This document shows, piece by piece, positions 1,285-13,226 of a DNA stretch of 13,226 bases (position 1 is its first letter; each line of letters starts with the position of its first letter). A program made the position numbers and the translations under genes. The DNA is from a virus (lineage: Duplodnaviria > Heunggongvirae > Uroviricota > Caudoviricetes), in the IMG/VR virus record IMGVR_UViG_2563366869_000004; one strand, given 5' to 3'. The notes beneath the pieces were generated by a model, which was given only the letters and a program-made list of their open reading frames with translations, searched no databases and was not told the DNA's origin.

Positions 1285-2000
1285 AATTCACAGATGTTTT
1301 TTCTCATTCTGTGGTTTCCTTGGCGCTTTCTAGGTTTTTTCAGATAGTTACATTTTTTCAAAAGCATCCTGAGTTCGATCTTACTATCTATCTGTGGCCT
1401 ATTTCTGTCCCATATATGCCCCAAAAAACACCCCAACAGATAAGCAATCTTTTCATGGTGTTACGCGTAAAAACAATAACGGCTTGAAATTATTCAATAC
1501 ACTCTCGAAAGTGCATCAGCCAACCGCAGAACGTTATTGCATACAACGTTTCTGCGGCATATCACGAAACGATTACTTAATGACTGGGACTTCAGACCAC
1601 TCAATATCCGGTACAATTATGTATCAACGCAGTTTAACAACACCCTATATTTAATCCAGAGTGCGAGCAACGTTGTCCCTTTCTCTTTTGCACTCTTAAA
1701 ATATACGATTACTTAAGTGAAGATGCTTGACGAATCGCCAAATAAAACATCTTCATCAGCATAAAAATCCATATATGATTGAAAATTTAGTCATTAATAC
1801 CATTCATATCTGAATACTAACCTAATACGCTTACTAACCGTGAGAAATCTTTTTTTTCGACTTAATCACTCGAAATAAACTTTCACTCAATTGAAAACAA
1901 TTAGCTACAATTATCATTGCAATATCAAATCAAACATAACAACTTGCATAAATTCTCATGGGATACAGCATCAGTTGTGCCAAACACATAAGGAATTGAA

Positions 2001-2198
2001 ATGGACGGAGAAAGCTTTAACTTTGATGACAATGATATTGAATTTATTGCTTCAATGTATGCATCATGTAAATTATCAGGAAGTATCGCCCCCATAATGC
2101 ATATAATGGTTAGCATTCCAAAAAATAAGAAAAAACAATTCTACGAACGAGTTGAGCATTATTGTAGTTTATATTCCAATAAAAACCCACCTTCTTAA
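2001..2198 (+). CDS. Small hypothetical protein (65 aa) in the AT-rich region
   Basis: ATG at 2001 is preceded by AAGGAA with about 5 nt spacing. ORF of 65 codons, no recognisable motif. Two other ORFs overlap it in other frames, so coding status is uncertain. Confidence 0.3.
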   Translation: MDGESFNFDDNDIEFIASMYASCKLSGSIAPIMHIMVSIPKNKKKQFYERVEHYCSLYSNKNPPS

Positions 2199-2329
2199 AT
2201 TCGCTGCATTCTAGTGGATTCCATTAAGAAAACAATGACATACACTCAAACACATCTTTTTTATCAACAGTGAATTTCAGTTCGGCCAGTTTTTACCAGC
2301 TATTATAAAAATAGCACCCATATAAAGTT

Positions 2330-2430
2330 TTTACCCCACAGGTACAGCTGGCCATTCGATAACCGCACTAAGGAAGTGCCAACACGACATCAGCAAGACC
2401 CGATATTTCTTCCATGCCGCCAGCAACGAT
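2330..2430 (-). pseudogene. Remnant of a second tail-fibre-assembly (tfa) 3' end
   Basis: 2341-2430 aligns base-by-base, same orientation, with the 3' end of the intact tfa at 3031-3120 (ctggccattc, caacacg, cagcaa, acccgata, ttcttcca, ccagcaacga shared). Minus-strand translation gives ...IEWPAVPVG*, a Tfa C-terminus, but the frame has an internal stop upstream. No ORF of 60 aa or more covers it. Confidence 0.5.
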
Positions 2431-2901
2431 GTTAAGGTTAAATTAATTATAAAAAAATATATTATAATTCCATCTTCGCATTAAATTTTAACCTTTAATC
2501 TCCACACGGAACAAGTTGCATAGGTGACTATATTAAGAAAACTTATAACCACCAAAAAGATTTGCTTTGCAAGCAAAAACAGTGACCATTGACTCTAAGA
2601 AAATTCCGATCTATTGTTAGTGTCATCAAAGTTACTTAACAGTATTCCGAAATGAAAATACAAAGCAAGCTAATTGTCTTATTAAACATTATCATTGCAT
2701 TTATATTATTTGAGCTTTTAGCTCAAAAATTTGGTTTGAGTACATTATTTTAAAGCAAGATAAACAATATCGGGCACTCTAGTTTTTATAATTAACAATT
2801 AAACGCCCATAAAATGTTATTTACTTTTCTTCGCTATTGTCATATCTTAATATAGTGGCTTACGCCACTCTACTTTCATCATATTTTGTACGTTTATGTA
2901 C

Positions 2902-2932
2902 TCGCCATGAAGCTCTTTCATGGCGATTTTTT
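2902..2932 (+). terminator. Rho-independent terminator, plus-strand sense
   Basis: Perfect 10-bp stem tcgccatgaa / ttcatggcga with 5-nt loop gctct, followed directly by tttttt (2927-2932). No A-run on the other side, so it is unidirectional and convergent with tfa. Confidence 0.5.
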
Positions 2933-3018
2933 ATTCTTAATCCAAGAACATACTCCCTACCTATAGAAAAATCACTTTTTGAACAAAAGAATAACGTATT
3001 TAGGTAATCATTACGAAT

Positions 3019-3600
3019 TTACCCTATAGGTGCTACTGGCCATTCAATATCCGGTGCAGTTGTTGTATTAACACGGTTCAGCAACACCCGATACTTCTTC
3101 CAGGCTTCCAGCAACGAGATTTCTTCCTCCGTTGCAATTTCCAGATCTGCAGCATCCTGAAGCGGCGCAATATGCTCACTGGCTACCTGCATCAGGTTGT
3201 TTTTTGTTTCTTCCGCCTCCCGGATCCGGAACAGTTTTTCTGCTTCCGTATCCTTCACCCAGGCTGTGCCGTTCCACTTCTGATATTCCCCTTCCGGCGA
3301 TAACCAGGTGACATTTTCCGGTAACGAGCCAAGTTCAGAAATAAATAACGCGTCGCCGGAAGCCACGTCATAGACGGTTTTTCCCCGATGATCTTCAACG
3401 AGATGCCACGATGCCTCATCACTGTTGAAAACAGCCACAAAGCCAGCCGGAATATCTGGCGGTGCAATATCGGTACTGTTTGCTGGCAGACCTGTATGAG
3501 GCGGAATATATGCGTCACCTTCACCAATAAATTCATTAGTTCCGGCCAGCAGATTATAAATTTTTATGGTCCGTGGTTGTTCACTCATTCTGAATGCCAT
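3019..3600 (-). CDS. tfa: Tail fibre assembly protein Tfa (lambda Tfa-like)
   Basis: 193-aa ORF beginning [48 protein letters not shown], which matches lambda Tfa as I remember it; ends ...IEWPVAPIG. Its ATG overlaps the stop of the upstream stf ORF (TAATG arrangement at 3598-3602). Confidence 0.9.
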
Positions 3601-5297
3601 TATGCAAGCCTCACAATATAGTTAAATGCGATGTTTTTGACGGTGTTTTCCGCGTTACCAGCAGCGTTAACGGTGATGGTGTGTCCATGTGAACCAATCG
3701 CAACGGAGTGCGTATGAGCACCAATACCGACAGTATGCGCGTGTGCACCTGCAGATGCTGCTGTGCCGGACAGTGAGTGGCTATGGTTACCATCTGTACT
3801 GGTATTAGCTAACGCCCCCGTAGACATACCTACTGAGCCTTGTACACCCCAGGTATTTTGACCTGAGCTTGTATAACCATATTGATAAGTATCTTTAAAA
3901 ACACTGGGGTTAAATCGACGGCCATCTCTATGGCTGTGATTACCAGCTGCATTCGTGCTGCCACTTAAACTATGGGTATGCGCACCAGTGTTATTCGTGG
4001 ATTTAGTGCCGTAATCAAACGACGATGTGGTTTTCGTCCCCAAATCAGTACTGGATGCGCTGGCGCTGTGGGTATGCGATTTTATGCCGTCCTGTTCCTG
4101 AGACAATACGGCACGACCACTGGCGGGCTTGCCCTTAATCGTCCAGCCACGCATATCAGGGATCACGCCTGACGGATAAGCGGCTGCAAGTTTCGGGTAG
4201 GCAGATTTGTCAAAAGTCTGCCCCTGCATCAGGGCATAACCAGACGGAACGGTATCTGATGGCCACGGGATTGGTGCGCCGACTGGGTAGCTTTCTGGTG
4301 GAAGATTTTTCGAGGTATAAACTTCTGCCCAGTCTTCCTCAAAACCATAACCGTCTCTTGAAGAACGGTAGAACAGACCACCATTTCTGTAATGCGCCTT
4401 CATCTGCAAGGTCCGGCAACTTCCGACTCCGGTATAGAAGTTAACCAGAATATAGCTGTCGCCAGAGCGGGTGACATTATAAGCGCCTGATTCGGCATTC
4501 CAGGGAACGCCACCATCCGCATCGGCATATGTATCCGTTGCCCTTCTGGCAAAAGCAGCCACATGCGCGGCGGTTAAAGTAATATCTTTGGAACCATCAA
4601 ACTCAACACCAGAAACCCGTCTTGGCGTTTGCAGCTTTGTTGCTGTTAATGCATTACCGTTCAGACTTGCGGACAGTTTGGTTCCAATAACCAGTTCGCC
4701 GGTTGCGTTATCAATAGCAAACGGTCTTAATGTATTCCAGCCACCATAAACATCACCTTGATTGGTAAGCAGCAGGTAAGTTTTAGCGCCATCATTACGC
4801 CATAATGCCCCATACTCCCCACCTATCATTCGAATCTGATTACCACCACGCGCTACAATTTCGTCTGTGGCAAAAAGTTTTTTGCACGACAAGTTATCGT
4901 TAACGATTAATGAATGAGACTCATAAAAACCACGCCCACTCTTAAAATCAAGGATAACGTCCGCCGCGATACATTCAGTCGCCGGATTTGTTGCCCCAAA
5001 CTTATAGGTCGTATCATTAACAACGAGATCAGCACCAGGTGCGGATATTGACAGGCCATCTTCGATAAACGCAAAAACAGGGAAAGCAGCGCCATCAACA
5101 TAGAACACAGAGCGCAAATCATCGCCCTTATTACTCATCATTATTGAGTGGATGGCTCGTTCATTGTTTTGATATTGCCAGAACATTCCATAAGCATAAC
5201 GCCCCCTGTCAGTCCAGCCACCAGGCATAACAAATCCGTTATTCGAGCAACCCACCAGCGATATCAGCAGGAACAGGCAGATCACAGGTTTTTTCAC
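3600..5297 (-). CDS. stf: Side tail fibre protein (lambda Stf-like C-terminal HxH tip domain) with an N-terminal lipoprotein-type signal peptide; probable deletion fusion
   Basis: 565-codon ORF. The C-terminal region ([75 protein letters not shown] ... [29 protein letters not shown]) has the repeated HxH motifs and the ending of lambda Stf. The N-terminus [17 protein letters not shown] is a signal peptide with lipobox LVGC. The start is GTG at 5297 with GGGAGA about 9 nt upstream, in a different frame from and overlapping the 3' end of the Rz-like gene. About 565 aa is short for a lambda-type Stf. Confidence 0.8.
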
Positions 5298-5562
5298 GGC
5301 GGAGAATCTCCCGGTATTCGATTACGGTTTTTTCGGTGCTGGTGTCGATCAGGGAGTTAAGACTGTTGGCATGTTCTGCAACCTGATTGAATCGATTGAA
5401 GTTGAATGCCTGGGTGGCGATTACCTGCCCCAGCATAGAGTTGTCACTTCGCAGAACGTCGTTATCGCTCTGAAGATTACTGGCGTAAGAGCAACTCTTG
5501 ACGAGAGCGACCGAAAGGCCAGCAATAACGACAACGCCTATAAGATCCGGATTAATTTTCAT
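5239..5562 (-). CDS. Rz-like i-spanin (inner-membrane spanin component)
   Basis: ATG at 5560-5562 overlaps the endolysin TGA (ATGA overlap). 107 aa with an N-terminal TM segment ([15 protein letters not shown]) followed by a hydrophilic, probably coiled region; position immediately after the endolysin fits a spanin. The longer six-frame ORF (to 5655) would overlap the endolysin in another frame and is not preferred. Confidence 0.55.
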
Positions 5563-6101
5563 TGCTCCAGCCCCCAGCACGCCAGTGCGCTTTCCTGATC
5601 GCGCCGCTCGACCTGCCCATAACAGCCATTCTTCTGCCCTTTTGTCAGGCGGCAATCACGCCCACCATCTTTTATCCACCAGCGAATCGCCTCGCATGCC
5701 CCCTTACGATCATCGGCATTCAGCCGCTTATAAAACGTCGACGGGAAACACTTACCGGGGCCAATGTTATAGGGACAAAATGACGCTATACCCGCTTTCT
5801 GTGGTTCGGTCAGTGGCACTTTAATATTGCGCTCCACCCATGCCAGCGCCTTATCCCGTTCAATGGCGTTAACCTGGTCGCATTTTTCCTTCGACAGTTT
5901 CATACCGGGAAAAACGGGTTTTCCATCCACCACCGTGGCACCCCGACAGATGGTCCAGATGCCGGAACCATCGCGGTATGCCGTTGTGTGGTTACCTTCT
6001 TTTTCATTCAGAAACTGGTCGAGAATATCAGGCGCAGGCGCACCGACGGCAATCAGTGCCAGAACGGCAGCCGACAGGCCGTATCTGATTTTTACGTTCA
6101 T
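5559..6101 (-). CDS. SAR endolysin (T4-lysozyme-like, GH24)
   Basis: 180-aa ORF, ATG at 6099-6101. N-terminal hydrophobic, Gly/Ala-rich signal-anchor-release-type segment (LSAAVLALIAVGAPAP) followed by the lysozyme catalytic motif E-x8-D-x5-T (EGNHTTAYRDGSGIWTICRGAT). Weak SD. Confidence 0.9.
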   Translation of the reverse strand: MNVKIRYGLSAAVLALIAVGAPAPDILDQFLNEKEGNHTTAYRDGSGIWTICRGATVVDGKPVFPGMKLSKEKCDQVNAIERDKALAWVERNIKVPLTEPQKAGIASFCPYNIGPGKCFPSTFYKRLNADDRKGACEAIRWWIKDGGRDCRLTKGQKNGCYGQVERRDQESALACWGLEQ

Positions 6102-6206: not shown

Positions 6207-6479
6207 ATGGACAATAGCACCATTTCTCTACAGGAGTTGCTCGACTGCATTTCCAAGCTTCGGGATGATGTAAATGCCCTTACTGTCGCATTTTCATATC
6301 TGGCATTCTCAATTCCCAAGGAACAAATGCAACCAACACTGGCATCGCTCCAGCTTGAATCACTCAACCCCAAATGGTCCCAGCAACAACAAAATTCTTT
6401 CAAGTGGCTGGCGATATTACTGGAAGAAAAATATGCTGGTGAAATTACCATTTCGGCGGAGTCTTCAGAGAACCAGTAA
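6207..6479 (+). CDS. Small hypothetical protein (90 aa) encoded opposite to the lysis genes
   Basis: ATG at 6207 preceded by AGAGAGGA (6193-6200) at ideal spacing; TAA at 6477-6479. MDNSTISLQELLDCISKLRDDVNALTVAF... has balanced composition and no motif I recognise. Its 3' end overlaps the 3' end of the convergent YdfR-like ORF by 35 nt. Confidence 0.5.
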   Translation: MDNSTISLQELLDCISKLRDDVNALTVAFSYLAFSIPKEQMQPTLASLQLESLNPKWSQQQQNSFKWLAILLEEKYAGEITISAESSENQ

Positions 6480-6789
6480 TTCTTCCCGGTAGCTTTCCTT
6501 TGTAGGTTATCCACACATTCTGCGCCTCTAAAATTATGGGGCGCTTTTCCGGCGACAGCTCATCCCCTTCACATAACCCGGCAGCAACATCCAGGAAGAC
6601 CTGTCTGATGCTCCTTCTGGCTGCTGCCTCATAAAACTCCAGCGCGGCACCTTCAACACGGTCCAGCGAGATGTCCAGGTCAAAAATTTCACCGTCAAAG
6701 CGTTCTTTGTCCCGTAACGCTAAAGTTACCGTAACTTTATTCTCAAAATTGCGGATCCCTTTCACAATCAGTTCATATTTTTGAGTCAT
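6445..6789 (-). CDS. YdfR-like (DUF1327-type) lysis-cassette protein
   Basis: 114-aa ORF, ATG at 6787-6789 with GGGGAGAG SD, starting 4 nt after the holin stop. It occupies the position between S21-type holin and endolysin that ydfR holds in Qin. Family assignment is by position and memory, not by a sequence match. The C-terminal third may read into inserted DNA. Confidence 0.55.
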   Translation of the reverse strand: MTQKYELIVKGIRNFENKVTVTLALRDKERFDGEIFDLDISLDRVEGAALEFYEAAARRSIRQVFLDVAAGLCEGDELSPEKRPIILEAQNVWITYKGKLPGRITGSLKTPPKW

Positions 6790-6793
6790 TGAA

Positions 6794-7009
6794 TTACTCT
6801 CCCCGTGCAGCCTTACGCTTGTCTTCTTTAATCTTGAAATAAAGGTTTGTCAGGTACGTCAGCAGGCCAAATACCAGGCTACCCAGCACACCTATTGCTG
6901 CCCACTGTGAGGGCGTGACTTTATCGAGCAGCTGTAAAAACCAGTAGCCAGCACTGCCTGCGGAGGTGCCGTAGGCAATGCCTGTTGAAATTTTGTCCAT
7001 GGATTTCAT
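6794..7009 (-). CDS. Phage 21 S-type pinholin with dual-start motif
   Basis: 71-aa [74 protein letters not shown], close to S21 as I remember it. Met1-Lys2-Ser3-Met4 dual start (ATG at 7007-7009 and 6998-7000). Strong SD GGAGGTGA upstream. The six-frame ORF extends to 7066 but the RBS supports 7009. Confidence 0.9.
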
Positions 7010-7113
7010 AGCCTCACCTCCGCACGGAACGGATGGCATAGTTATTATGTGTAGGCTTCCAGACACATCAATCGGAGCCTTAATTGATATATATGCTGGA
7101 GACGATGCAATAT

Positions 7114-7135
7114 AAAAAGCTCGCCGTAGCGAGCT
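7114..7135 (-). terminator. Rho-independent terminator downstream of the lipoprotein pair
   Basis: Minus-sense RNA forms stem AGCUCGC / GCGAGCU with loop UACG, followed by UUUUUAUAUU (plus-strand A-run 7114-7118 adjoining hairpin 7119-7134). It lies between the lipoprotein gene end (7261) and the holin start (7009). Confidence 0.5.
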
Positions 7136-7260
7136 AATAAAATGTATTTCTCTGATATTATGTTTATTTGTATTAGCTCAGACTTGACATCACAGGTTTC
7201 GTATATAGAACATCATCAAATCTGTCAGTTTGCTATGAATGAGATATAGTAATTGAAGAG

Positions 7261-7656
7261 CTAACCTCGCATGTCAAAGCCAGATTTCTGAAAATCTCTG
7301 TAGACTTCCGGATTGTTGAAGGCCGGAAATTTGGCTTTATGAGCTGCGGACTTTATCGCTTCGCAATAGGCTTTATCACCGTTACTGGTAGATATTTTTA
7401 ACGCCGTGCCATCCTGAGAGAATTCCATATGCAACCTGCATTTTTTCCCTTTCCAGTTATGCGGCTCATCAAGTTTGGCATTAATTGCAGCTCTGATTCC
7501 CCGCGCTTGCGCCCCCCATTCATCCTGATCATCCCAGCGTCCTGAACTGCAACTACCTGTAGCAGTAGTTTTGTGGCAATCTGAAGGGTGTAAAGGTGTG
7601 CATCCCGCAACAAAACCGACCCAAAAAGTCAACATAACGATTTTCTTTAATCCCAC
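7261..7656 (-). CDS. Lipoprotein with divergent TolA C-terminal (domain III)-like domain, paralog of the upstream gene
   Basis: GTG at 7656 preceded by GAGGAG at 6 nt; TAG at 7261-7263. Signal peptide MGLKKIVMLTFWVGFVAGC with lipobox VAGC and Thr at +2. C-terminus KKCRLHMEFSQDGTALKISTSNGDKAYCEAIKSAAHKAKFPAFNNPEVYRDFQKSGFDM aligns with the upstream paralog and with the TolA domain III C-terminus, both Cys conserved. Confidence 0.75.
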   Translation of the reverse strand: MGLKKIVMLTFWVGFVAGCTPLHPSDCHKTTATGSCSSGRWDDQDEWGAQARGIRAAINAKLDEPHNWKGKKCRLHMEFSQDGTALKISTSNGDKAYCEAIKSAAHKAKFPAFNNPEVYRDFQKSGFDMRG

Positions 7657-7806
7657 TTCTTGCTCCTCAATCCATTAAAATCTCAGCAATAGTAGTTGTT
7701 ACGTCCGCCACTGGCTCAGAGCTGACTATCCGCTAGATTTAGCTCAGTGCCGTAGTTGTGTCAGAACAAACCTAAGCCGAAACCGTTTATTACAAAACAA
7801 TAAATA

Positions 7807-8235
7807 TCAGGGTTTAAAATCCAGCACCCCATTTTGAAATACTTTATATACTTCCGGCGAAGGGGGGGCAGGTATATCAGCATTCTTTATCGCATTCATC
7901 GCTTCACGACATAAATCGAGGTCTCCACTTTCTCTTTTAACCTCCAGTAGAAGGCCATTCGGGGCCATATGCATTCTCAGTGTACACTCTTTTCCTGAAT
8001 ACTTACTCGCATCCCCGAACTGTTTTTCGATGGCGCTCTTGATTTGATGGGCATACAGACGGATATCCTCACTAACATCAGAAGTACGTTCAGATGAACT
8101 CACATACTGTGTCTCTATTGCTTTATCGGAGTAATATGATGTACGGTCATGATAATTTGTCGATACAGCATCAGTGCACCCGATAATAATCCCACTAATA
8201 ATCAACGTAAGAATTGATGCGCTACGAAAACCCAT
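7807..8235 (-). CDS. Lipoprotein with TolA C-terminal (domain III)-like domain
   Basis: ATG at 8233-8235 preceded by GAGGA at about 5 nt. Signal peptide MGFRSASILTLIISGIIIGC with lipobox IIGC and Thr at +2. C-terminal 85 aa YAHQIKSAIEKQFGDASKYSGKECTLRMHMAPNGLLLEVKRESGDLDLCREAMNAIKNADIPAPPSPEVYKVFQNGVLDFKP matches the end of E. coli TolA as I remember it (YAGQIKSAIESKFYDASSYAGKTCTLRIKLAPDGMLLDIKPEGGDPALCQAALAAAKLAKIPKPPSQAVYEVFKNAPLDFKP), including both Cys and the terminal LDFKP. Confidence 0.85.
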   Translation of the reverse strand: MGFRSASILTLIISGIIIGCTDAVSTNYHDRTSYYSDKAIETQYVSSSERTSDVSEDIRLYAHQIKSAIEKQFGDASKYSGKECTLRMHMAPNGLLLEVKRESGDLDLCREAMNAIKNADIPAPPSPEVYKVFQNGVLDFKP

Positions 8236-8264
8236 TTTTCCTCACATATGTCATATAGTAAAGG

Positions 8265-8294
8265 ATTATATATACCGTTGTTTTGGACGCTCAA
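8265..8294 (-). promoter_or_regulatory. Candidate sigma70 promoter for the lipoprotein pair
   Basis: Minus-sense TTGAGC (-35, plus 8289-8294), 18-nt spacer, TATAAT (-10, plus 8265-8270), about 25 nt upstream of the ATG at 8235. Pattern match only. Confidence 0.35.
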
Positions 8295-8768: not shown

Positions 8769-9122
8769 CTACCCCAGATGAGTAATCCGAAGTTCATCCA
8801 TACCACAGGTCCTGGCTATTCTGTTGTACTCCTGAACAAGAGCAAATAATTCTGAATTAGCAACCATGAACTCATCGCAAACCCTCTGTATAGCATCACT
8901 ATTCAGAATAATAACGTCTCTTCCCGAAAGACGATCAGGAGCACAGAACAAAACTGTCAAACGGCTGAAGGCCTTTGCTCGTGCTGCATTGACTATATCA
9001 ATACGCTGCCTAAGGATGAAACACCCCGACGCCTCATCAATATTCACTCTACCCACACCATATGAATGATAAATATTTAATGCTGAAAAAACCATTAGAC
9101 CGTATAACAAACACTCAATCAA
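8769..9122 (-). CDS. Hypothetical ORF (117 codons) of doubtful coding status
   Basis: Largest ORF between the tRNAs and the lipoprotein genes, same strand as the late operon. Starts with TTG; first in-frame ATG at 9093-9095; no convincing SD; no recognisable motif. Confidence 0.25.
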   Translation of the reverse strand: MIECLLYGLMVFSALNIYHSYGVGRVNIDEASGCFILRQRIDIVNAARAKAFSRLTVLFCAPDRLSGRDVIILNSDAIQRVCDEFMVANSELFALVQEYNRIARTCGMDELRITHLG

Positions 9123-9232
9123 TACTTAACAGAACTTTTATTTTTGACAAACATATAATGTTTTCAACAATATCCTGAGCCAGGTATATTCCAGTATAAG
9201 GCTCTGCCGGAAGGAATCTGGAAGAATGAATA

Positions 9233-9309
9233 TGGCGCGCTGTACTGGATTCGAACCAGTGACCGATTGCTTAGAAGGCAATTGCTCTGTCCGGCTGAGC
9301 TAACAACGC
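9233..9309 (-). tRNA. tRNA-Arg (anticodon UCU), phage-borne
   Basis: Minus-sense 77 nt folds as a cloverleaf: acceptor GCGTTGT/ACAGCGC (one G-U), D-arm GCTC-AGCCGGACA-GAGC, anticodon stem-loop ATTGC-CTTCTAA-GCAAT (UCU at 34-36), 5-nt variable loop, T-arm ACTGG-TTCGAAT-CCAGT, discriminator G, CCA encoded. Confidence 0.9.
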
Positions 9310-9339
9310 TGAATACCGATAATGGACCGCCATCGGGGA

Positions 9340-9357
9340 CCCCCCCCCCCCCCCCCC
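9340..9357. repeat. Homopolymeric C18 tract (G18 in the late transcript) between the two tRNA genes
   Basis: Direct count: one C at 9340 plus 17 C at 9341-9357, flanked by ggggac on the left and gca on the right. Confidence 0.9.
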
Positions 9358-9418
9358 GCACCAACAACCCTGTTATCGTGTCGTCTGCTCTTCCTGATAA
9401 GCTCATGGCGGTTTGTGA

Positions 9419-9494
9419 TGGTGGCCCTTGCTGGATTTGAACCAGCGACCTGGCGATTATGAGTCGCTCGCTCTCACCACTGAGCTAAAGGACC
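9419..9494 (-). tRNA. tRNA with CAU anticodon; closest to tRNA-Ile2 (lysidine, ileX-like), elongator Met not excluded
   Basis: Minus-sense 76 nt GGTCCTTTAGCTCAGTGGTGAGAGCGAGCGACTCATAATCGCCAGGTCGCTGGTTCAAATCCAGCAAGGGCCACCA. Acceptor GGTCCTT/AAGGGCC (one G-U), anticodon loop CTCATAA, T-loop TTCAAAT, CCA encoded. Strong resemblance to E. coli ileX as I recall it. Confidence 0.9.
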
Positions 9495-9530
9495 GGGAGC
9501 AGAATAATAACGGTCCGTAATTAATTCCGC

Positions 9531-9557
9531 AATAAAAAACCCGCTCGGTGGCGGGTT
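9531..9557 (-). terminator. tR'-like intrinsic terminator just downstream of the Q gene
   Basis: Minus-sense RNA stem AACCCGC / GCGGGUU with loop CACCGA, followed by UUUUUUAUU (plus-strand A-run 9534-9539). It sits between the pR'-like promoter and the first tRNA, as tR' does in lambdoid phages. Confidence 0.55.
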
Positions 9558-9604
9558 GTAGAAACTCTTCTAACGTCAGGTATAAAAAGCCCATCTTTAT
9601 GACG

Positions 9605-9632
9605 AATTTACCACAGATTCCGGAAAAATCAA
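9605..9632 (-). promoter_or_regulatory. pR'-like late promoter (putative Q-utilisation region)
   Basis: Minus-sense TTGATT (-35, plus 9627-9632), 16-nt spacer, TAAATT (-10, plus 9605-9610), immediately 3' of the Q-like gene stop (9638) and about 40 nt upstream of the terminator hairpin. TAAATT is the -10 I recall for lambda pR'. Confidence 0.45.
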
Positions 9633-9637
9633 CCTTG

Positions 9638-10459
9638 TTACCTAGTTACCTTTTTTAACTGCCGCTCAGCCCATGCTTCTTCAATATCAAACCGGGTCAC
9701 CAGCGCATCATAGAATTTCTTAACTGTTTTTTCCCATGACGCGCGTGTTATCTGGTTTGTCACCTCGCATATAGCATTAAATGCCTCCGTTGATGGTAGT
9801 CTTTCATAGCCACGACCACCACAACGCTGGCAGTCTCTGATAACAGGCATACCACGTTTTACCGACTCTTCACGGTGAATGGCGACACCACGCCCACGGC
9901 AATCCTTACAGGCGGTGGAAACCTCACCCTTTCCGCCACACTCCGGACAGGCAACTTTTACCACCTCCCTGACTTTTTTCCATTCTTCCCAGTAAGACGG
10001 ATACACACCTTTCGTACACTTTGCCCATACCGGCGGCTTACCATCCGGATACTGGACCTTGTTTGTAAAAACTACGCTTTCAATAAATTTTTCCCCATAG
10101 CAACAAGGGCACTGCTTTTTACTCGCTGCGCTGCGGGCATAATCCTCAAAAGCGTACGAAGCCATAATGCGCATCACTAACGGTTTTATTTCTGCCGGAA
10201 GTTTTCTCAACGCCGCCACACGATCGCACCGACTGAGTGCATAATCTGCCAGTAATTCTGTTGCCCGCGCCCTGTCATTCATACTGATGCCCATTTTCCC
10301 CAGGAACGCAGAAAACCCCATCTCAGCCCGATTCTGTGTCATGCCCTGCGCGGCCATCACATCAGTGATACTCAGCGCATCTTTTGACGTTGAGGCCGAT
10401 GCATCGGTCAGGCAAGGGGATTTTGGGGAGTAGTATTTCGGTAAATCTTCCAGTTTCAT
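9638..10459 (-). CDS. Q-like late antiterminator candidate (QuuQ-like) with cysteine-rich repeats
   Basis: 273-aa ORF whose ATG (10457-10459) overlaps the rusA stop (ATGA). It sits between rusA and the pR'/tR' pair, the canonical Q slot. Contains CPCCYGEK, CPECGGKG, CKDCRGRG and CQRCGGRG repeats. The Q call is by position and size; I could not confirm it by sequence. Confidence 0.6.
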   Translation of the reverse strand: MKLEDLPKYYSPKSPCLTDASASTSKDALSITDVMAAQGMTQNRAEMGFSAFLGKMGISMNDRARATELLADYALSRCDRVAALRKLPAEIKPLVMRIMASYAFEDYARSAASKKQCPCCYGEKFIESVVFTNKVQYPDGKPPVWAKCTKGVYPSYWEEWKKVREVVKVACPECGGKGEVSTACKDCRGRGVAIHREESVKRGMPVIRDCQRCGGRGYERLPSTEAFNAICEVTNQITRASWEKTVKKFYDALVTRFDIEEAWAERQLKKVTR

Positions 10460-10830
10460 TTTTTGACCTGCTCTTCATGCATTATGGGGTAAATCTTCAC
10501 CCCCATACGTCCACCAGATACTGGCTGACCACGAACGATATTGATTTCATCAAACTGCTCATCGTCCATTAACACTCCCGCATGCGTCAGCGCATCCAGC
10601 GGTGCTTTAAGGATATTGTCCAGGTCGCGACGACGCTTATCCGGTGGCTCTGCAATCACCTTTATCGCCAGCCTTCCGGACAGGCTTAATTTCAGCCGCT
10701 GCTGGCGAACAATAAGCGCCACAGCCCGGCGATAACGCTTTCCCTCCTCCGAGATAAAATATGTGCTGCCACGGCGTCGCCAGTAAGTGTTCACCGTCGG
10801 CGGGTAAGGTAAAACCAAATCTATGAGCAT
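10456..10830 (-). CDS. rusA: RusA Holliday-junction resolvase
   Basis: 124-aa ORF with AGAGGTGA SD 4 nt before the ATG at 10828-10830. Contains the RusA-family core DKRRRDLDNILKAPLDALTHAGVLMDDEQ (compare K-12 RusA DRRRRDLDN...KAAFDALTKAGFWLDD as I recall it). Confidence 0.85.
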   Translation of the reverse strand: MLIDLVLPYPPTVNTYWRRRGSTYFISEEGKRYRRAVALIVRQQRLKLSLSGRLAIKVIAEPPDKRRRDLDNILKAPLDALTHAGVLMDDEQFDEINIVRGQPVSGGRMGVKIYPIMHEEQVKK

Positions 10831-10842
10831 CAGTCACCTCTT

Positions 10843-11790
10843 TTACCCAAGCACGCCAGTTGCAAAGGCGTGATCAAGAAAACGAAAGATTAAATCAACC
10901 TGAGAACCATGCTTTTCTTCGAACGCCAGCGGATCCGCATGAAGCTCGTTGTGATGCTCCCGACACAGCGGTAGCGTGAAAATATCGTGAGATTTTGTCC
11001 CCATTCCGCCCTGACCATGACCAATCAGGTGATGGGGATCGTCGGCTGGCTTACCACAACACGCACACGGCTGTGTCTTCACCCAGCGTGTGTATTTCTC
11101 GTTAACCCAGCGGCGACGTTTAGGTCGTTTCATAAAAGATTCCGGAGACTCAGGATCAACGGCAATGCTTACCACCGTCTTTTCCTGTAGTGGGTGTTGT
11201 TCCTGGTGGGCGTGAGGCAACAGTGCAAGATTTTTTGTGCGCTGTTTCAGTATGCTGGTGGCGGTCTGCTCTCCCGGTACGATGTCGCTTTCACGGTACA
11301 TTGAGCGGATTTTTTCCGCACGCAACCCCAGCGAACGACGTAATACCGCTTCCGGTAGCGCGTCCGCCACCTGATTGCGGACCGCCCACCAGGATAATTC
11401 AGCCAGAGATAATTCACGCTCCTGCGTACCGCTTATTGCGTGACCGATGACGTCAATCATCCATGCTGACAGGTTTTGATGAGCAACTTGCTCGAGTGAT
11501 TCGGATGTCTGGTCACGCAGCTGGTTGTCGCAGTGCCAGCACAACACCATTGCGCCGGTACCATAACGGTGAATGACGGTTTCGCTGTGATGATAATCGC
11601 CGTGTGGCCACTGGCAGGATTTAATATGGCGCAACAGCCAGTCAGACAATGCACCAGCACCACCAGCAGCACGAATCACCCGTGCGTTACTGAAAAACGG
11701 CAGCAATGTTTTGTCTTCCACCAGCGGCTGGCGAGCGGCAGGAACGACCCCGGACGGCAGATTACGCATGCTTTTCGGTTCCGGCTCCAC
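10843..11790 (-). CDS. DUF968-family (YdfU-like) prophage protein with C-terminal HNH-like Cys/His cluster
   Basis: 315-codon ORF ending 12 nt upstream of rusA. C-terminal CACCGKPADDPHHLIGHGQGG...CREHHNELH cluster. Start is uncertain: GTG at 11790 has no SD and the first ATG at 11769 has poor context, so the gene may be 5'-truncated. Confidence 0.7.
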   Translation of the reverse strand: MEPEPKSMRNLPSGVVPAARQPLVEDKTLLPFFSNARVIRAAGGAGALSDWLLRHIKSCQWPHGDYHHSETVIHRYGTGAMVLCWHCDNQLRDQTSESLEQVAHQNLSAWMIDVIGHAISGTQERELSLAELSWWAVRNQVADALPEAVLRRSLGLRAEKIRSMYRESDIVPGEQTATSILKQRTKNLALLPHAHQEQHPLQEKTVVSIAVDPESPESFMKRPKRRRWVNEKYTRWVKTQPCACCGKPADDPHHLIGHGQGGMGTKSHDIFTLPLCREHHNELHADPLAFEEKHGSQVDLIFRFLDHAFATGVLG

Positions 11791-11911: not shown

Positions 11912-11945
11912 CTAAAAGCCACACTAACTAATGAGAGAAGTTGAA

Positions 11946-13226
11946 ATGAAATATCCGACAGGCGTGGAAAACCATGGAGGGAAATTACGTATCTGGTTTG
12001 TTTATAAAGGCGTAAGAGTCAGGGAAAATCTGGGGGTTCCTGACACAGCAAAAAACAGGCGCGTTGCAGGTGAACTACGCGCCTCTGTTTGTTACGCAAT
12101 AAAAACTGGTGTTTTCGACTATGCAAAACAGTTTCCCTCCTCACGCAATCTGGAAAAATTTGGTGAGGCCCGACAAGATTTAACCATAAAAGAACTGGCT
12201 GAAAAATTTCTGGCACTGAAAGAAACTGAAGTCGCCAAAACATCACTCAACACATACCGTGCCGTCATCAAAAATATCCTGAGCATAATCGGTGAAAAAA
12301 ATCTTGCCTCATCGATTAATAAAGAAAAATTACTGGAGGTTCGTAAAGAGTTACTGACTGGATACCAGATCCCCAAAAGTAACTATATTGTTACACAACC
12401 AGGGAGATCGGCTGTAACTGTAAATAATTACATGACAAATCTTAACGCCGTGTTCCAGTTTGGTGTTGATAACGGTTACCTGGCAGATAATCCGTTTAAG
12501 GGGATCTCGCCATTAAAGGAATCAAGAACCATTCCGGATCCTCTTTCGCGGGAAGAATTTATCCGTCTTATCGATGCGTGCAGAAATCAGCAAGCAAAAA
12601 ATTTATGGTGTGTTTCTGTTTATACTGGCGTTCGCCCTGGTGAGCTGTGTGCACTTGGATGGGAGGACATAGATCTGAAAAATGGAACAATGATGATCAG
12701 GAGAAATTTAGCAAAAGACCGTTTCACGGTACCAAAAACACAGGCGGGAACCAATCGGGTCATTCATCTTATTAAGCCAGCAATCGACGCTCTCCGGAGT
12801 CAGATGACATTAACGAGACTGAGCAAAGAGCATATCATTGATGTTCACCTCAGAGAGTATGGCAGAACAGAAAAACATAAATGCACCTTTGTTTTTCAAC
12901 CTGAAGTGTCAGCGAGAGTAAAAAATTATGGTGACCATTTTACCGTTGACTCAATAAGGCAGATGTGGGACGCAGCGATAAAACGTGCCGGACTCCGCCA
13001 TCGAAAATCATATCAGTCGAGACATACTTATGCCTGCTGGTCGCTGACAGCTGGTGCTAACCCGGCATTTATAGCAAACCAGATGGGCCATGCAGATGCG
13101 CAAATGGTATTTCAGGTATACGGAAAATGGATGTCTGAAAACAATAATGCACAGGTAGCTTTGTTAAATACACAGTTAAGCGAGTTTGCCCCAACCATGC
13201 CCCATAACGAAGCAATGAAAAATTAA
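11946..13226 (+). CDS. int: Tyrosine site-specific integrase (lambda-integrase family)
   Basis: Full ORF to TAA at 13224-13226. Catalytic-region motifs near the C-terminus (RHTYACWSL...HADAQMVFQVYGKW). N-terminus MKYPTGVENHGGKLRIWF resembles the prophage IntR/IntS type. Start chosen at ATG 11946 (purine-rich GAGAGAAG upstream); an in-frame ATG at 11931 is the alternative. Confidence 0.9.
   Translation: MKYPTGVENHGGKLRIWFVYKGVRVRENLGVPDTAKNRRVAGELRASVCYAIKTGVFDYAKQFPSSRNLEKFGEARQDLTIKELAEKFLALKETEVAKTSLNTYRAVIKNILSIIGEKNLASSINKEKLLEVRKELLTGYQIPKSNYIVTQPGRSAVTVNNYMTNLNAVFQFGVDNGYLADNPFKGISPLKESRTIPDPLSREEFIRLIDACRNQQAKNLWCVSVYTGVRPGELCALGWEDIDLKNGTMMIRRNLAKDRFTVPKTQAGTNRVIHLIKPAIDALRSQMTLTRLSKEHIIDVHLREYGRTEKHKCTFVFQPEVSARVKNYGDHFTVDSIRQMWDAAIKRAGLRHRKSYQSRHTYACWSLTAGANPAFIANQMGHADAQMVFQVYGKWMSENNNAQVALLNTQLSEFAPTMPHNEAMKN

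Follow-up and report, generated by a model that had tools for sequence, protein, structure and literature searches.

The stretch of DNA analysed here (the window; 13,226 nucleotides, IMG/VR virus record IMGVR_UViG_2563366869_000004) is 100% identical to an Escherichia coli chromosome and carries the remnant of a Qin-like prophage, about 10.6 kb long, which occupies ydfJ as Qin does in strain K-12. Between the late antiterminator gene Q and the holin gene of this remnant lie two adjacent genes, called A and B in this work, which encode small predicted lipoproteins whose C-terminal part is the third domain of TolA (TolAIII). In the direction of transcription, which is that of the minus strand for all features given below unless otherwise stated, the order is a DUF968 gene, rusA, Q, two tRNA genes, a DUF3927 gene, an element of the STnc100 family, A, B and the holin gene. 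These are followed by a ydfR-like gene, the lysozyme gene, a truncated Rz gene fused to a tail-fibre fragment, and tfa. The placement of A and B in the cargo slot between Q and the holin gene (S), put forward in an original prediction made from the sequence alone, was thus borne out.

Two lipoproteins made of a signal, a tether and TolA domain III

Gene A (7807..8235) starts with ATG and encodes 142 amino acids. Its product, a predicted outer-membrane lipoprotein, consists of a signal peptide (residues 1-19) with the lipobox IIGC, Cys20 followed by a Thr at position +2, a disordered tether (about residues 21-50) and TolAIII (about residues 51-142), which ends in LDFKP. Gene B (7261..7656) starts with GTG and encodes 131 amino acids. 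Its product, likewise a predicted outer-membrane lipoprotein, has the lipobox VAGC with Cys19 and a Thr at +2, a conserved, Cys-containing tether, CTPLHPSDCHKTTATGSCSSGRWDDQDEWG, and TolAIII from about residue 45 to residue 131, with FDMRG as C-terminus.

In the translations, the signal peptide and lipobox read MGFRSASILTLIISGIIIGC in A, followed by TD, and MGLKKIVMLTFWVGFVAGC in B, followed by TP. At the sequence level, both have the layout of a lipoprotein signal, with a basic n-region, a hydrophobic h-region and a lipobox of the type [LVI][ASTVI][GAS]C. These parts are MGFR, SASILTLIISG and IIGC in A, and MGLKK, IVMLTFWVGF and VAGC in B. The two adjacent open reading frames with lipoprotein signals that had been predicted were thus found on the minus strand. 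Shine-Dalgarno sequences were read by eye: GAGG is present 4 nucleotides 5' of the ATG of A, and GAGGAG 6 nucleotides 5' of the GTG of B. For B, the prokaryotic genome annotation pipeline (PGAP) sets the start at Met8 (124 amino acids, WP_001348108.1); the GTG start with its upstream GAGGAG regains the Lys-Lys n-region.

The lipobox is retained throughout the subfamilies of both A and B, and the residue at +2 in their relatives is Thr, Ala or Ser, never Asp. According to the Lol sorting rule, a residue other than Asp at this position directs a lipoprotein towards the outer membrane's inner leaflet. Since A and B carry Thr, outer-membrane sorting is predicted for both, and they are expected to sit on the inner face of that membrane.

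Both products matched the Pfam family TolA_C (PF06519, gathering score 25 bits), A with 82.6 bits (E 2.4e-23) and B with 54.6 bits (E 1.3e-14). When the PDB sequences were searched with phmmer, the best match was residues 334-421 of E. coli TolA (E 5e-28 for A and 5e-9 for B), to which A is 59% and B 31% identical without gaps. The Cys363/Cys388 pair of TolA is present in both proteins and the terminal LDFKP is exact in A. AlphaFold2 models had a predicted local distance difference test score above 90 over residues 51-142 of A and high confidence from about residue 45 of B, and were disordered across the signal and tether (residues 1-50 of A and 1-39 of B). The top Foldseek matches of these models were the solved TolAIII structures 3qdr, 3qdp, 2x9a_B and 1tol, with a root-mean-square deviation of 0.7 Å over 88 residues for A and of 1.1-1.5 Å for B, and both show the α/β fold of TolAIII with its three strands packed on helices. 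It was thus confirmed that A and B each consist of a lipoprotein signal, a tether and a complete TolA domain III. The predicted likeness of both C-termini to TolAIII, with A as a near copy down to its last residues and the Cys pair in both, was upheld.

The architecture of full-length TolA was not found in either protein. With their 142 and 131 residues and their lipoprotein signals, A and B align only to model positions 265-387 or so, and their NF007065 scores (107.8 and 53.7) are both below the cut-off of 213. With TIGR02794 (cut-off 59.45), A scored 75.6 through the C-terminal third of the model alone and B remained under the cut-off with 47.2. Furthermore, neither gene is encoded in a tolQRA-tolB-pal operon. 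In RefSeq, A is labelled by PGAP as a 'tolA' pseudogene, incomplete and with its N-terminus missing (9808-10068 in the carrier L001, which corresponds to 7807-8067 of the window, and in equivalent RefSeq records). This label is an artefact of the full-length TolA model; owing to it, most genomes lack a RefSeq protein accession for the intact A product, which in practice is absent from most protein-level surveys.

A and B are about 27% identical to each other and belong to two different subfamilies. When the domain of A was compared with full-length TolA representatives, it was 59% identical to that of E. coli and at most 52% identical to all others, which fits a mimicry of the TolA of that host.

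Two regions of TolAIII are used by its ligands. The β3 edge strand (A415-K420) and helix α1 form a common site for the N-terminus of TolB, the N1 domain of the phage protein g3p (g3p-N1) and colicin N (PMC4339652, PMC7391070), and colicin A binds the opposite β2 strand (L375-P380) together with K368, K379 and K396 (PMC3365938). TolB is bound weakly, with a dissociation constant of 40-200 µM, as against about 1 µM for colicin N (PMC4339652, PMC7391070). Over four mobile-element lineages, namely A, B and the two Klebsiella plasmid types K1 and K2 described below, the β3 strand is the best-retained surface: it reads APLDFKP in TolA, GVLDFKP in A, SGFDMRG in B, APLDFRP in K1 and AALDFRL in K2. The colicin A site is largely retained in A alone (LLEVKR, with two of the three lysines). 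The ratio of nonsynonymous to synonymous substitution rates (dN/dS) was 0.08-0.14 for B, when prophage, plasmid, Enterobacter and Serratia copies were compared, and 0.26-0.42 for the whole of gene A (0.12-0.35 for its domain only); by this measure both genes are under purifying selection.

Cargo slot, distribution and wider family

The upstream border of the slot is the gene for the Q-type late antiterminator (9638..10459), downstream of which lie the two phage tRNA genes (9233..9494), one for tRNA-Arg(TCT) and one with a CAT anticodon, called tRNA-Met by ARAGORN and tRNA-Ile by PGAP. Transfer RNAs downstream of Q are also annotated by PGAP in the A-type prophage L015. The downstream border is an essD-like holin gene (6794..7009); next come a YdfR-family gene (6445-6789) and the lysozyme gene (5559-6101). 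Upstream of A, a sigma-70 promoter-like site (8294..8265) of the form TTGAGC-18-TATAAT has 10 of 12 matches to the consensus. Ten sigma-70-like sites, defined by consensus match only, were counted in the region, as against 6.5 ± 2.7 in shuffled sequences. The -10 hexamer of the site upstream of A is TGTAAT in a relative that is 93% identical, and the upstream DNA is unrelated in a relative that is 78% identical. Between B and the holin gene (7108..7135), a terminator-like hairpin, AGCTCGC-TACG-GCGAGCT followed by a T-run, was likewise found by consensus match only. Among the features expected of a cargo ('moron') gene, promoter and terminator thus amount to consensus matches, and presence or absence and slot polymorphism among related phages are clear.

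Directly upstream of A lies an RNA element of the STnc100 family (Rfam RF02076; 8346..8536), which scored 110 bits against a gathering score of 47. A search of the window for more copies, either in the A-B interval or past the two genes, gave none. Other copies are located at 5626-5832 in L015, at 5704-5877, 6599-6803 and 6854-7061 in L017, and at 4440-4638 in L132. Such an element stands just 3' of stx1B in Shigella phage 75/02 Stx, 3' of the A-type gene in L015, and on both sides in L017. STnc100 repeats that bracket the lambdoid cargo slot may be recombination borders for the exchange of cargo, or else processing or termination elements.

The pair had been predicted to sit where Stx phages carry their toxin genes. 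This holds for A-type genes elsewhere, which occupy the exact stx position, from the tRNAs to the STnc100 element, and not for the cassette of the window, which lies past that element, at the nanS-p position of Stx phages. In other prophages, A-type genes are found between phage tRNAs and nanS-p, DUF826 or holin genes, that is, at the stxAB position of Stx phages. The known lambdoid cargo of this slot (stxAB, nanS-p, nmpC, cspB/F) shares with A and B the place past Q and the tRNAs and an STnc100-like border, and A and B, like that cargo, may be expressed from local and late promoters. The difference lies in what is carried, a copy of a host envelope-machine domain instead of a toxin, an esterase, a porin or a cold-shock protein.

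Of 5426 complete E. coli genomes, about 775 (about 14%) contained the block of A and B at a coverage of at least 80%, and hundreds of complete genomes share an identical cassette. Protein variants of the A type are 91%, 74% or 65-66% identical to A, and in all of them a length of 140-142 residues, the lipobox and the Cys pair are preserved. Other lambdoid prophages that carry terminase genes have an A-type gene without a B-type partner. B-type genes form a gene-sized block, the reading frame with about 30 bp, that is shared between prophages and plasmids. On IncK2/Z and IncI-gamma/K1 plasmids this block is directly 3' of the relaxase gene on the same strand, and on pO157 it adjoins a nikB remnant. 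It is not a standard feature of IncI1 plasmids, as the prototype R64 has nothing between nikB and trbC. Single chromosomal B-type genes were found in Enterobacter, where the gene is set among housekeeping genes, and in Citrobacter, Leclercia, Raoultella, Kluyvera, Pluralibacter, Serratia and others. In Serratia marcescens (L011-L014, around 8957-10736), the gene adjoins a GmrSD_N (DUF262) gene and a HEPN-domain gene, a pair that resembles a defence module.

Among the 50,697 deposited phage genomes, mEp460_ev081 (L002, LR597641) alone contained either gene, and it contained both; for this reason the reading of A and B as common phage genes was rejected. In a scan of IMG/VR, 80 near-identical E. 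coli prophage contigs were obtained. The late region of mEp460_ev081, with gnsB, a cspG-like gene, Qin-type lysis genes, A and B, resembles Qin-type prophage DNA, and our guess is that this phage may be an evolved recombinant ('ev') that gained the cassette from a host prophage.

The view of A and B as a self-contained two-gene phage cassette therefore did not stand, given their low mutual identity, their separate occurrence elsewhere and the single phage genome. In the same way, the suggested survey of whether the pair always lies between Q and S gave a negative answer, with A-type genes alone in other prophages and B-type genes alone on plasmids and chromosomes. In Enterobacteriaceae, B resides mainly on chromosomes and plasmids, and the best explanation is that A and B are two independently acquired cargo genes with separate histories.

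The two genes belong to a wider group. In a tblastn search with B, 1297 of the 72,556 plasmids of PLSDB matched, and, apart from the B-type copies, two more TolAIII lipoproteins are encoded by about 650 Klebsiella plasmids; they have the lipoboxes LTAC (followed by K) and ITAC (followed by S) and the C-termini LDFRP and LDFRL, and they also pass the PF06519 gathering threshold. On 10-kb Klebsiella ColRNAI plasmids, the gene for the TolAIII lipoprotein overlaps (ATGA) a gene for a TonB_C protein with a Sec signal (5905-6638 in L005, plasmid NZ_CP031718; also in L133). On the Klebsiella ColRNAI plasmid this pair is divergent to an adjoining operon for a colicin-like tRNase bacteriocin, its immunity protein and a lysis protein. 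In our reading of the two overlapping genes, a single small bacteriocin plasmid bears putative decoy-like copies of the two import machines. The second Klebsiella TolAIII lipoprotein gene, on an IncR plasmid (L006, 4217-5246), is directly 3' of a gene for a thioredoxin-fold (DsbC/TraF-like) protein, which may supply the formation of the TolAIII disulfide.

An exhaustive profile search of 1.84 billion representatives at 50% identity gave 584 TolAIII matches. Among the best 150 of these, 96 have at most 170 residues, and at least 61 of the 96 have a lipobox, none with Asp at +2. Judged by these sequences, tethered TolAIII-only proteins constitute a large family. They are catalogued as Pfam PF06519 matches, as PHROG phrog_5772 (both A and B, function unknown) and, at NCBI, as 'TolA C-terminal domain-containing protein'. 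Full-text literature searches returned neither a published function for any family member nor a functional study of such TolA-like lipoproteins, only passing mentions of 'tolA' on small plasmids (PMC6807383). The original statement that no characterised system of this kind was known thus agrees with what was found.

A putative periplasmic decoy and its alternatives

The fold, lipoboxes, surfaces, selection, distribution and genetic contexts described above suggest that A and B are decoys against Tol-dependent colicins and filamentous phages, the leading reading, to which we assign a probability of roughly 0.45. It is consistent with the conserved docking strand, the residue at +2, the purifying selection and the recurrence of TolAIII on plasmids. 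In the proposed mechanism, in which localisation, binding partners, expression and phenotype are all predicted, each protein would copy TolA's C-terminal hub domain without the motor, and a lipid anchor with a flexible tether, about 25-35 residues long, would suspend it from the inner face of the outer membrane. As TolA domains I and II are absent, there would be no coupling to TolQR or to the proton motive force, and docked ligands, not being energised by TolQR, would be held unproductively. With the β3 strand, the α1 surface and the disulfide kept, the domain would bind the TolB N-terminus, g3p-N1 of the filamentous phages Ff and If1, and colicin N; A would also offer most of the colicin A site. 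The decoy would in this way intercept Tol-dependent bacteriocins, the g3p of filamentous phages, or the TolB N-terminus that is exploited by enzymatic E colicins, and the lysogen or plasmid host would gain tolerance. Since TolAIII binds TolB weakly and colicin N at about 1 µM, such a decoy could favour the invaders over TolB. At a high dose, for instance upon Q-driven late transcription, the same binding would draw off TolB, with a looser outer membrane as the result.

Three of the contexts support a decoy function. The TolAIII/TonB_C pair stands beside a bacteriocin operon. B-type genes lie beside the transfer genes of pilus-making plasmids, and filamentous phages use conjugative pili together with TolA. 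Finally, the genes persist in a remnant that has no head genes and a truncated tail fibre.

The decoy can be compared with three known groups of proteins. First, TolAIII of E. coli (1TOL, 2X9A, 3QDP/3QDR, 1S62) has the same fold, Pfam family, disulfide, β3 strand and helix α1, and E. coli TolA is 59% identical to A, with LDFKP as the shared C-terminus. Unlike TolA, however, A and B have neither the inner-membrane anchor (domain I) nor the long helical domain II; they carry a lipoprotein signal instead and are encoded on mobile elements. Second, Cor of phi80, N15 and mEp phages, Llp of T5 and TraT of the F plasmid are, like A and B, small accessory lipoproteins of mobile elements, and are thought to block the entry of competitors at the inner face of the outer membrane. 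They plug or mask an outer-membrane receptor (FhuA, OmpA), whereas A and B would copy a periplasmic co-receptor; there is no sequence similarity between the two groups, and exclusion by A and B is putative. Third, the dominant-negative fragments made in the laboratory (exported TolAIII, periplasmic g3p-N1 and the periplasmic TonB C-terminal domain) follow the same principle, in which a hub copy without coupling competes against the energised machine, with tolerance, leakiness or both as the outcome. These fragments are artificial, soluble and overexpressed, whereas A and B are natural, lipid-anchored and evolutionarily maintained on prophages, plasmids and chromosomes. Exported TolAIII is said to have given both colicin tolerance and leakiness in the hands of Levengood-Freyermuth and colleagues in 1993, and the periplasmic TonB C-terminal domain was reportedly used as a dominant-negative fragment by Howard and colleagues in 2001. 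E. coli releases periplasmic protein when TolAIII is sent to that compartment (Wan and Baneyx 1998, as used in PMC6195910). The laboratory precedent for a dominant-negative effect of exported TolAIII adds weight to the decoy reading.

Several points weigh against a decoy. A PADLOC search of A, B and three neighbouring open reading frames gave no match, and the PHROG family of A and B is one of unknown function. In Enterobacter and its relatives, B-type genes stand alone on the chromosome among housekeeping genes, where a native role in the envelope fits too. The docking surfaces of B diverge substantially from those of TolA (FDMRG; QDEWGAQA in helix α1), so that its ligands may differ. In our reading of the late-operon site, expression would be strongest in lytic growth, when colicin tolerance matters little. 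In addition, the promoter and the terminator are consensus matches only, conservation of the promoter is not demonstrable, and the high conservation of the cassette in E. coli may reflect the recent spread of one prophage remnant.

The main rival explanation, which we regard as doubtful, is that the tethered TolAIII modulates Tol-Pal and has no part in defence. By titrating the TolB N-terminus, it would disable Tol-Pal locally; on the phage side, a looser outer membrane with more vesiculation and leakage would aid lysis and release late in infection, and on the plasmid side, envelope remodelling in conjugation would become easier. The genetic setting fits this proposal, since the cassette belongs to the late operon governed by Q and directly precedes the holin and lysozyme genes, A-type genes take the position of stx, which is cargo set free at lysis, and the I-complex plasmid copy is 3' of the relaxase gene, on the same strand, within the transfer region. 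It fits less well with a remnant that, without head genes and with a truncated tail-fibre gene, presumably makes no particles, and whose A and B are nevertheless intact in about 14% of E. coli genomes. A role in lysis or transfer is likewise absent for the standalone chromosomal orthologues and for those copies that, on small non-conjugative bacteriocin plasmids, are paired with a TonB C-terminal domain. The conserved surface is indeed the TolB-binding strand, but the low affinity of TolB for TolAIII means that high expression would be needed (PMC7391070). Leakage upon overproduction of periplasmic TolAIII (as used in PMC6195910) speaks for modulation. This explanation is compatible with the decoy, and the dose may decide between them.

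It is unlikely that A and B, and B in particular, are envelope proteins with a different partner, which may have a native role in Enterobacteriaceae apart from the ligands of TolA and may ride on mobile elements in E. coli, whether or not they bring a benefit. The TolAIII/TonB-C fold is a general module for β-strand augmentation. B is 31% identical to TolAIII, and its docking surfaces have diverged. It is marked by an N-terminal segment of its own, which contains Cys and is strongly conserved, and by very strong purifying selection, and the gene is found on the chromosomes of Enterobacter, Citrobacter, Leclercia, Raoultella, Kluyvera, Serratia and others. The fold and edge strand of B are still TolAIII-like, however, the gene stays intact after its capture as a gene-sized block by prophages and plasmids, and in Serratia it stands beside the defence-like GmrSD/HEPN pair.

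Finally, it is highly improbable that the genes are non-functional debris, either a tolA pseudogene fragment, as the PGAP label and the heavy decay of the surrounding prophage would have it, or an assembly artefact of host tolA. Each reading frame is intact and has a signal peptide, a lipobox and a ribosome-binding site, and length, lipobox and Cys pair are preserved in variants with as little as 65% protein identity, at dN/dS below 0.45. The cassette, found unchanged in hundreds of complete genomes, has no DNA-level match to tolA (in a 'distant'-mode DNA search only 1350 of the 5426 E. coli genomes matched, though tolA is present in all). Together, these findings leave practically no room for either form of this reading.

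If the decoy reading is true, about one in seven sequenced E. coli strains, and many I-complex, pO157 and Klebsiella plasmids, would carry generic protection from filamentous phages and Tol-dependent colicins. This would help to explain natural colicin insensitivity, and it would be relevant to antimicrobial uses of colicins, klebicins and plasmid-dependent phages. A natural tethered copy of a co-receptor would be a new variant of entry exclusion by mobile elements, and a new principle of defence, in which a periplasmic co-receptor is copied and no surface receptor is masked. Natural TolAIII variants, tuned by evolution, would also be provided for research on Tol-Pal, with ligand binding separated from force transduction.

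More generally, we tentatively propose that mobile elements of Enterobacteriaceae widely deploy 'import-machinery decoys', namely tethered TolAIII and, on some bacteriocin plasmids, secreted TonB C-terminal domains as well, which would give a broad, toxin-independent tolerance to Tol- and Ton-dependent bacteriocins and to pilus-specific filamentous phages. These would form a layer of defence apart from cognate immunity and from exclusion by receptor masking, of which the pair in the window would be the E. coli example.

Other features of the prophage remnant

An open reading frame for 565 amino acids (3600-5297, with a neighbour at 5239-5655) joins in frame an Rz1-like lipoprotein signal to the C-terminal part of a tail fibre. 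At this junction PGAP annotates an Rz-like gene without its C-terminus beside a tail-fibre gene without its N-terminus. The fusion looks like the scar of a deletion by which the whole morphogenesis region was removed.

At the other end of the remnant, a tyrosine integrase gene (11931-13226, plus strand) abuts the DUF968 gene (10843-11790). In the carrier L001, hokD and genes of the replication region are located there; either the remnant is shorter in the strain of the window, or a second element was inserted.

Between the ydfJ fragment and tfa, a region of about 1.7 kb (1285-3018) is rich in AT (GC content 0.30-0.35) and has no long open reading frame. Within the tail fibre assembly gene, a match to the Rfam family IS009 (RF02111) was detected at 3059-3257, with 225 bits.

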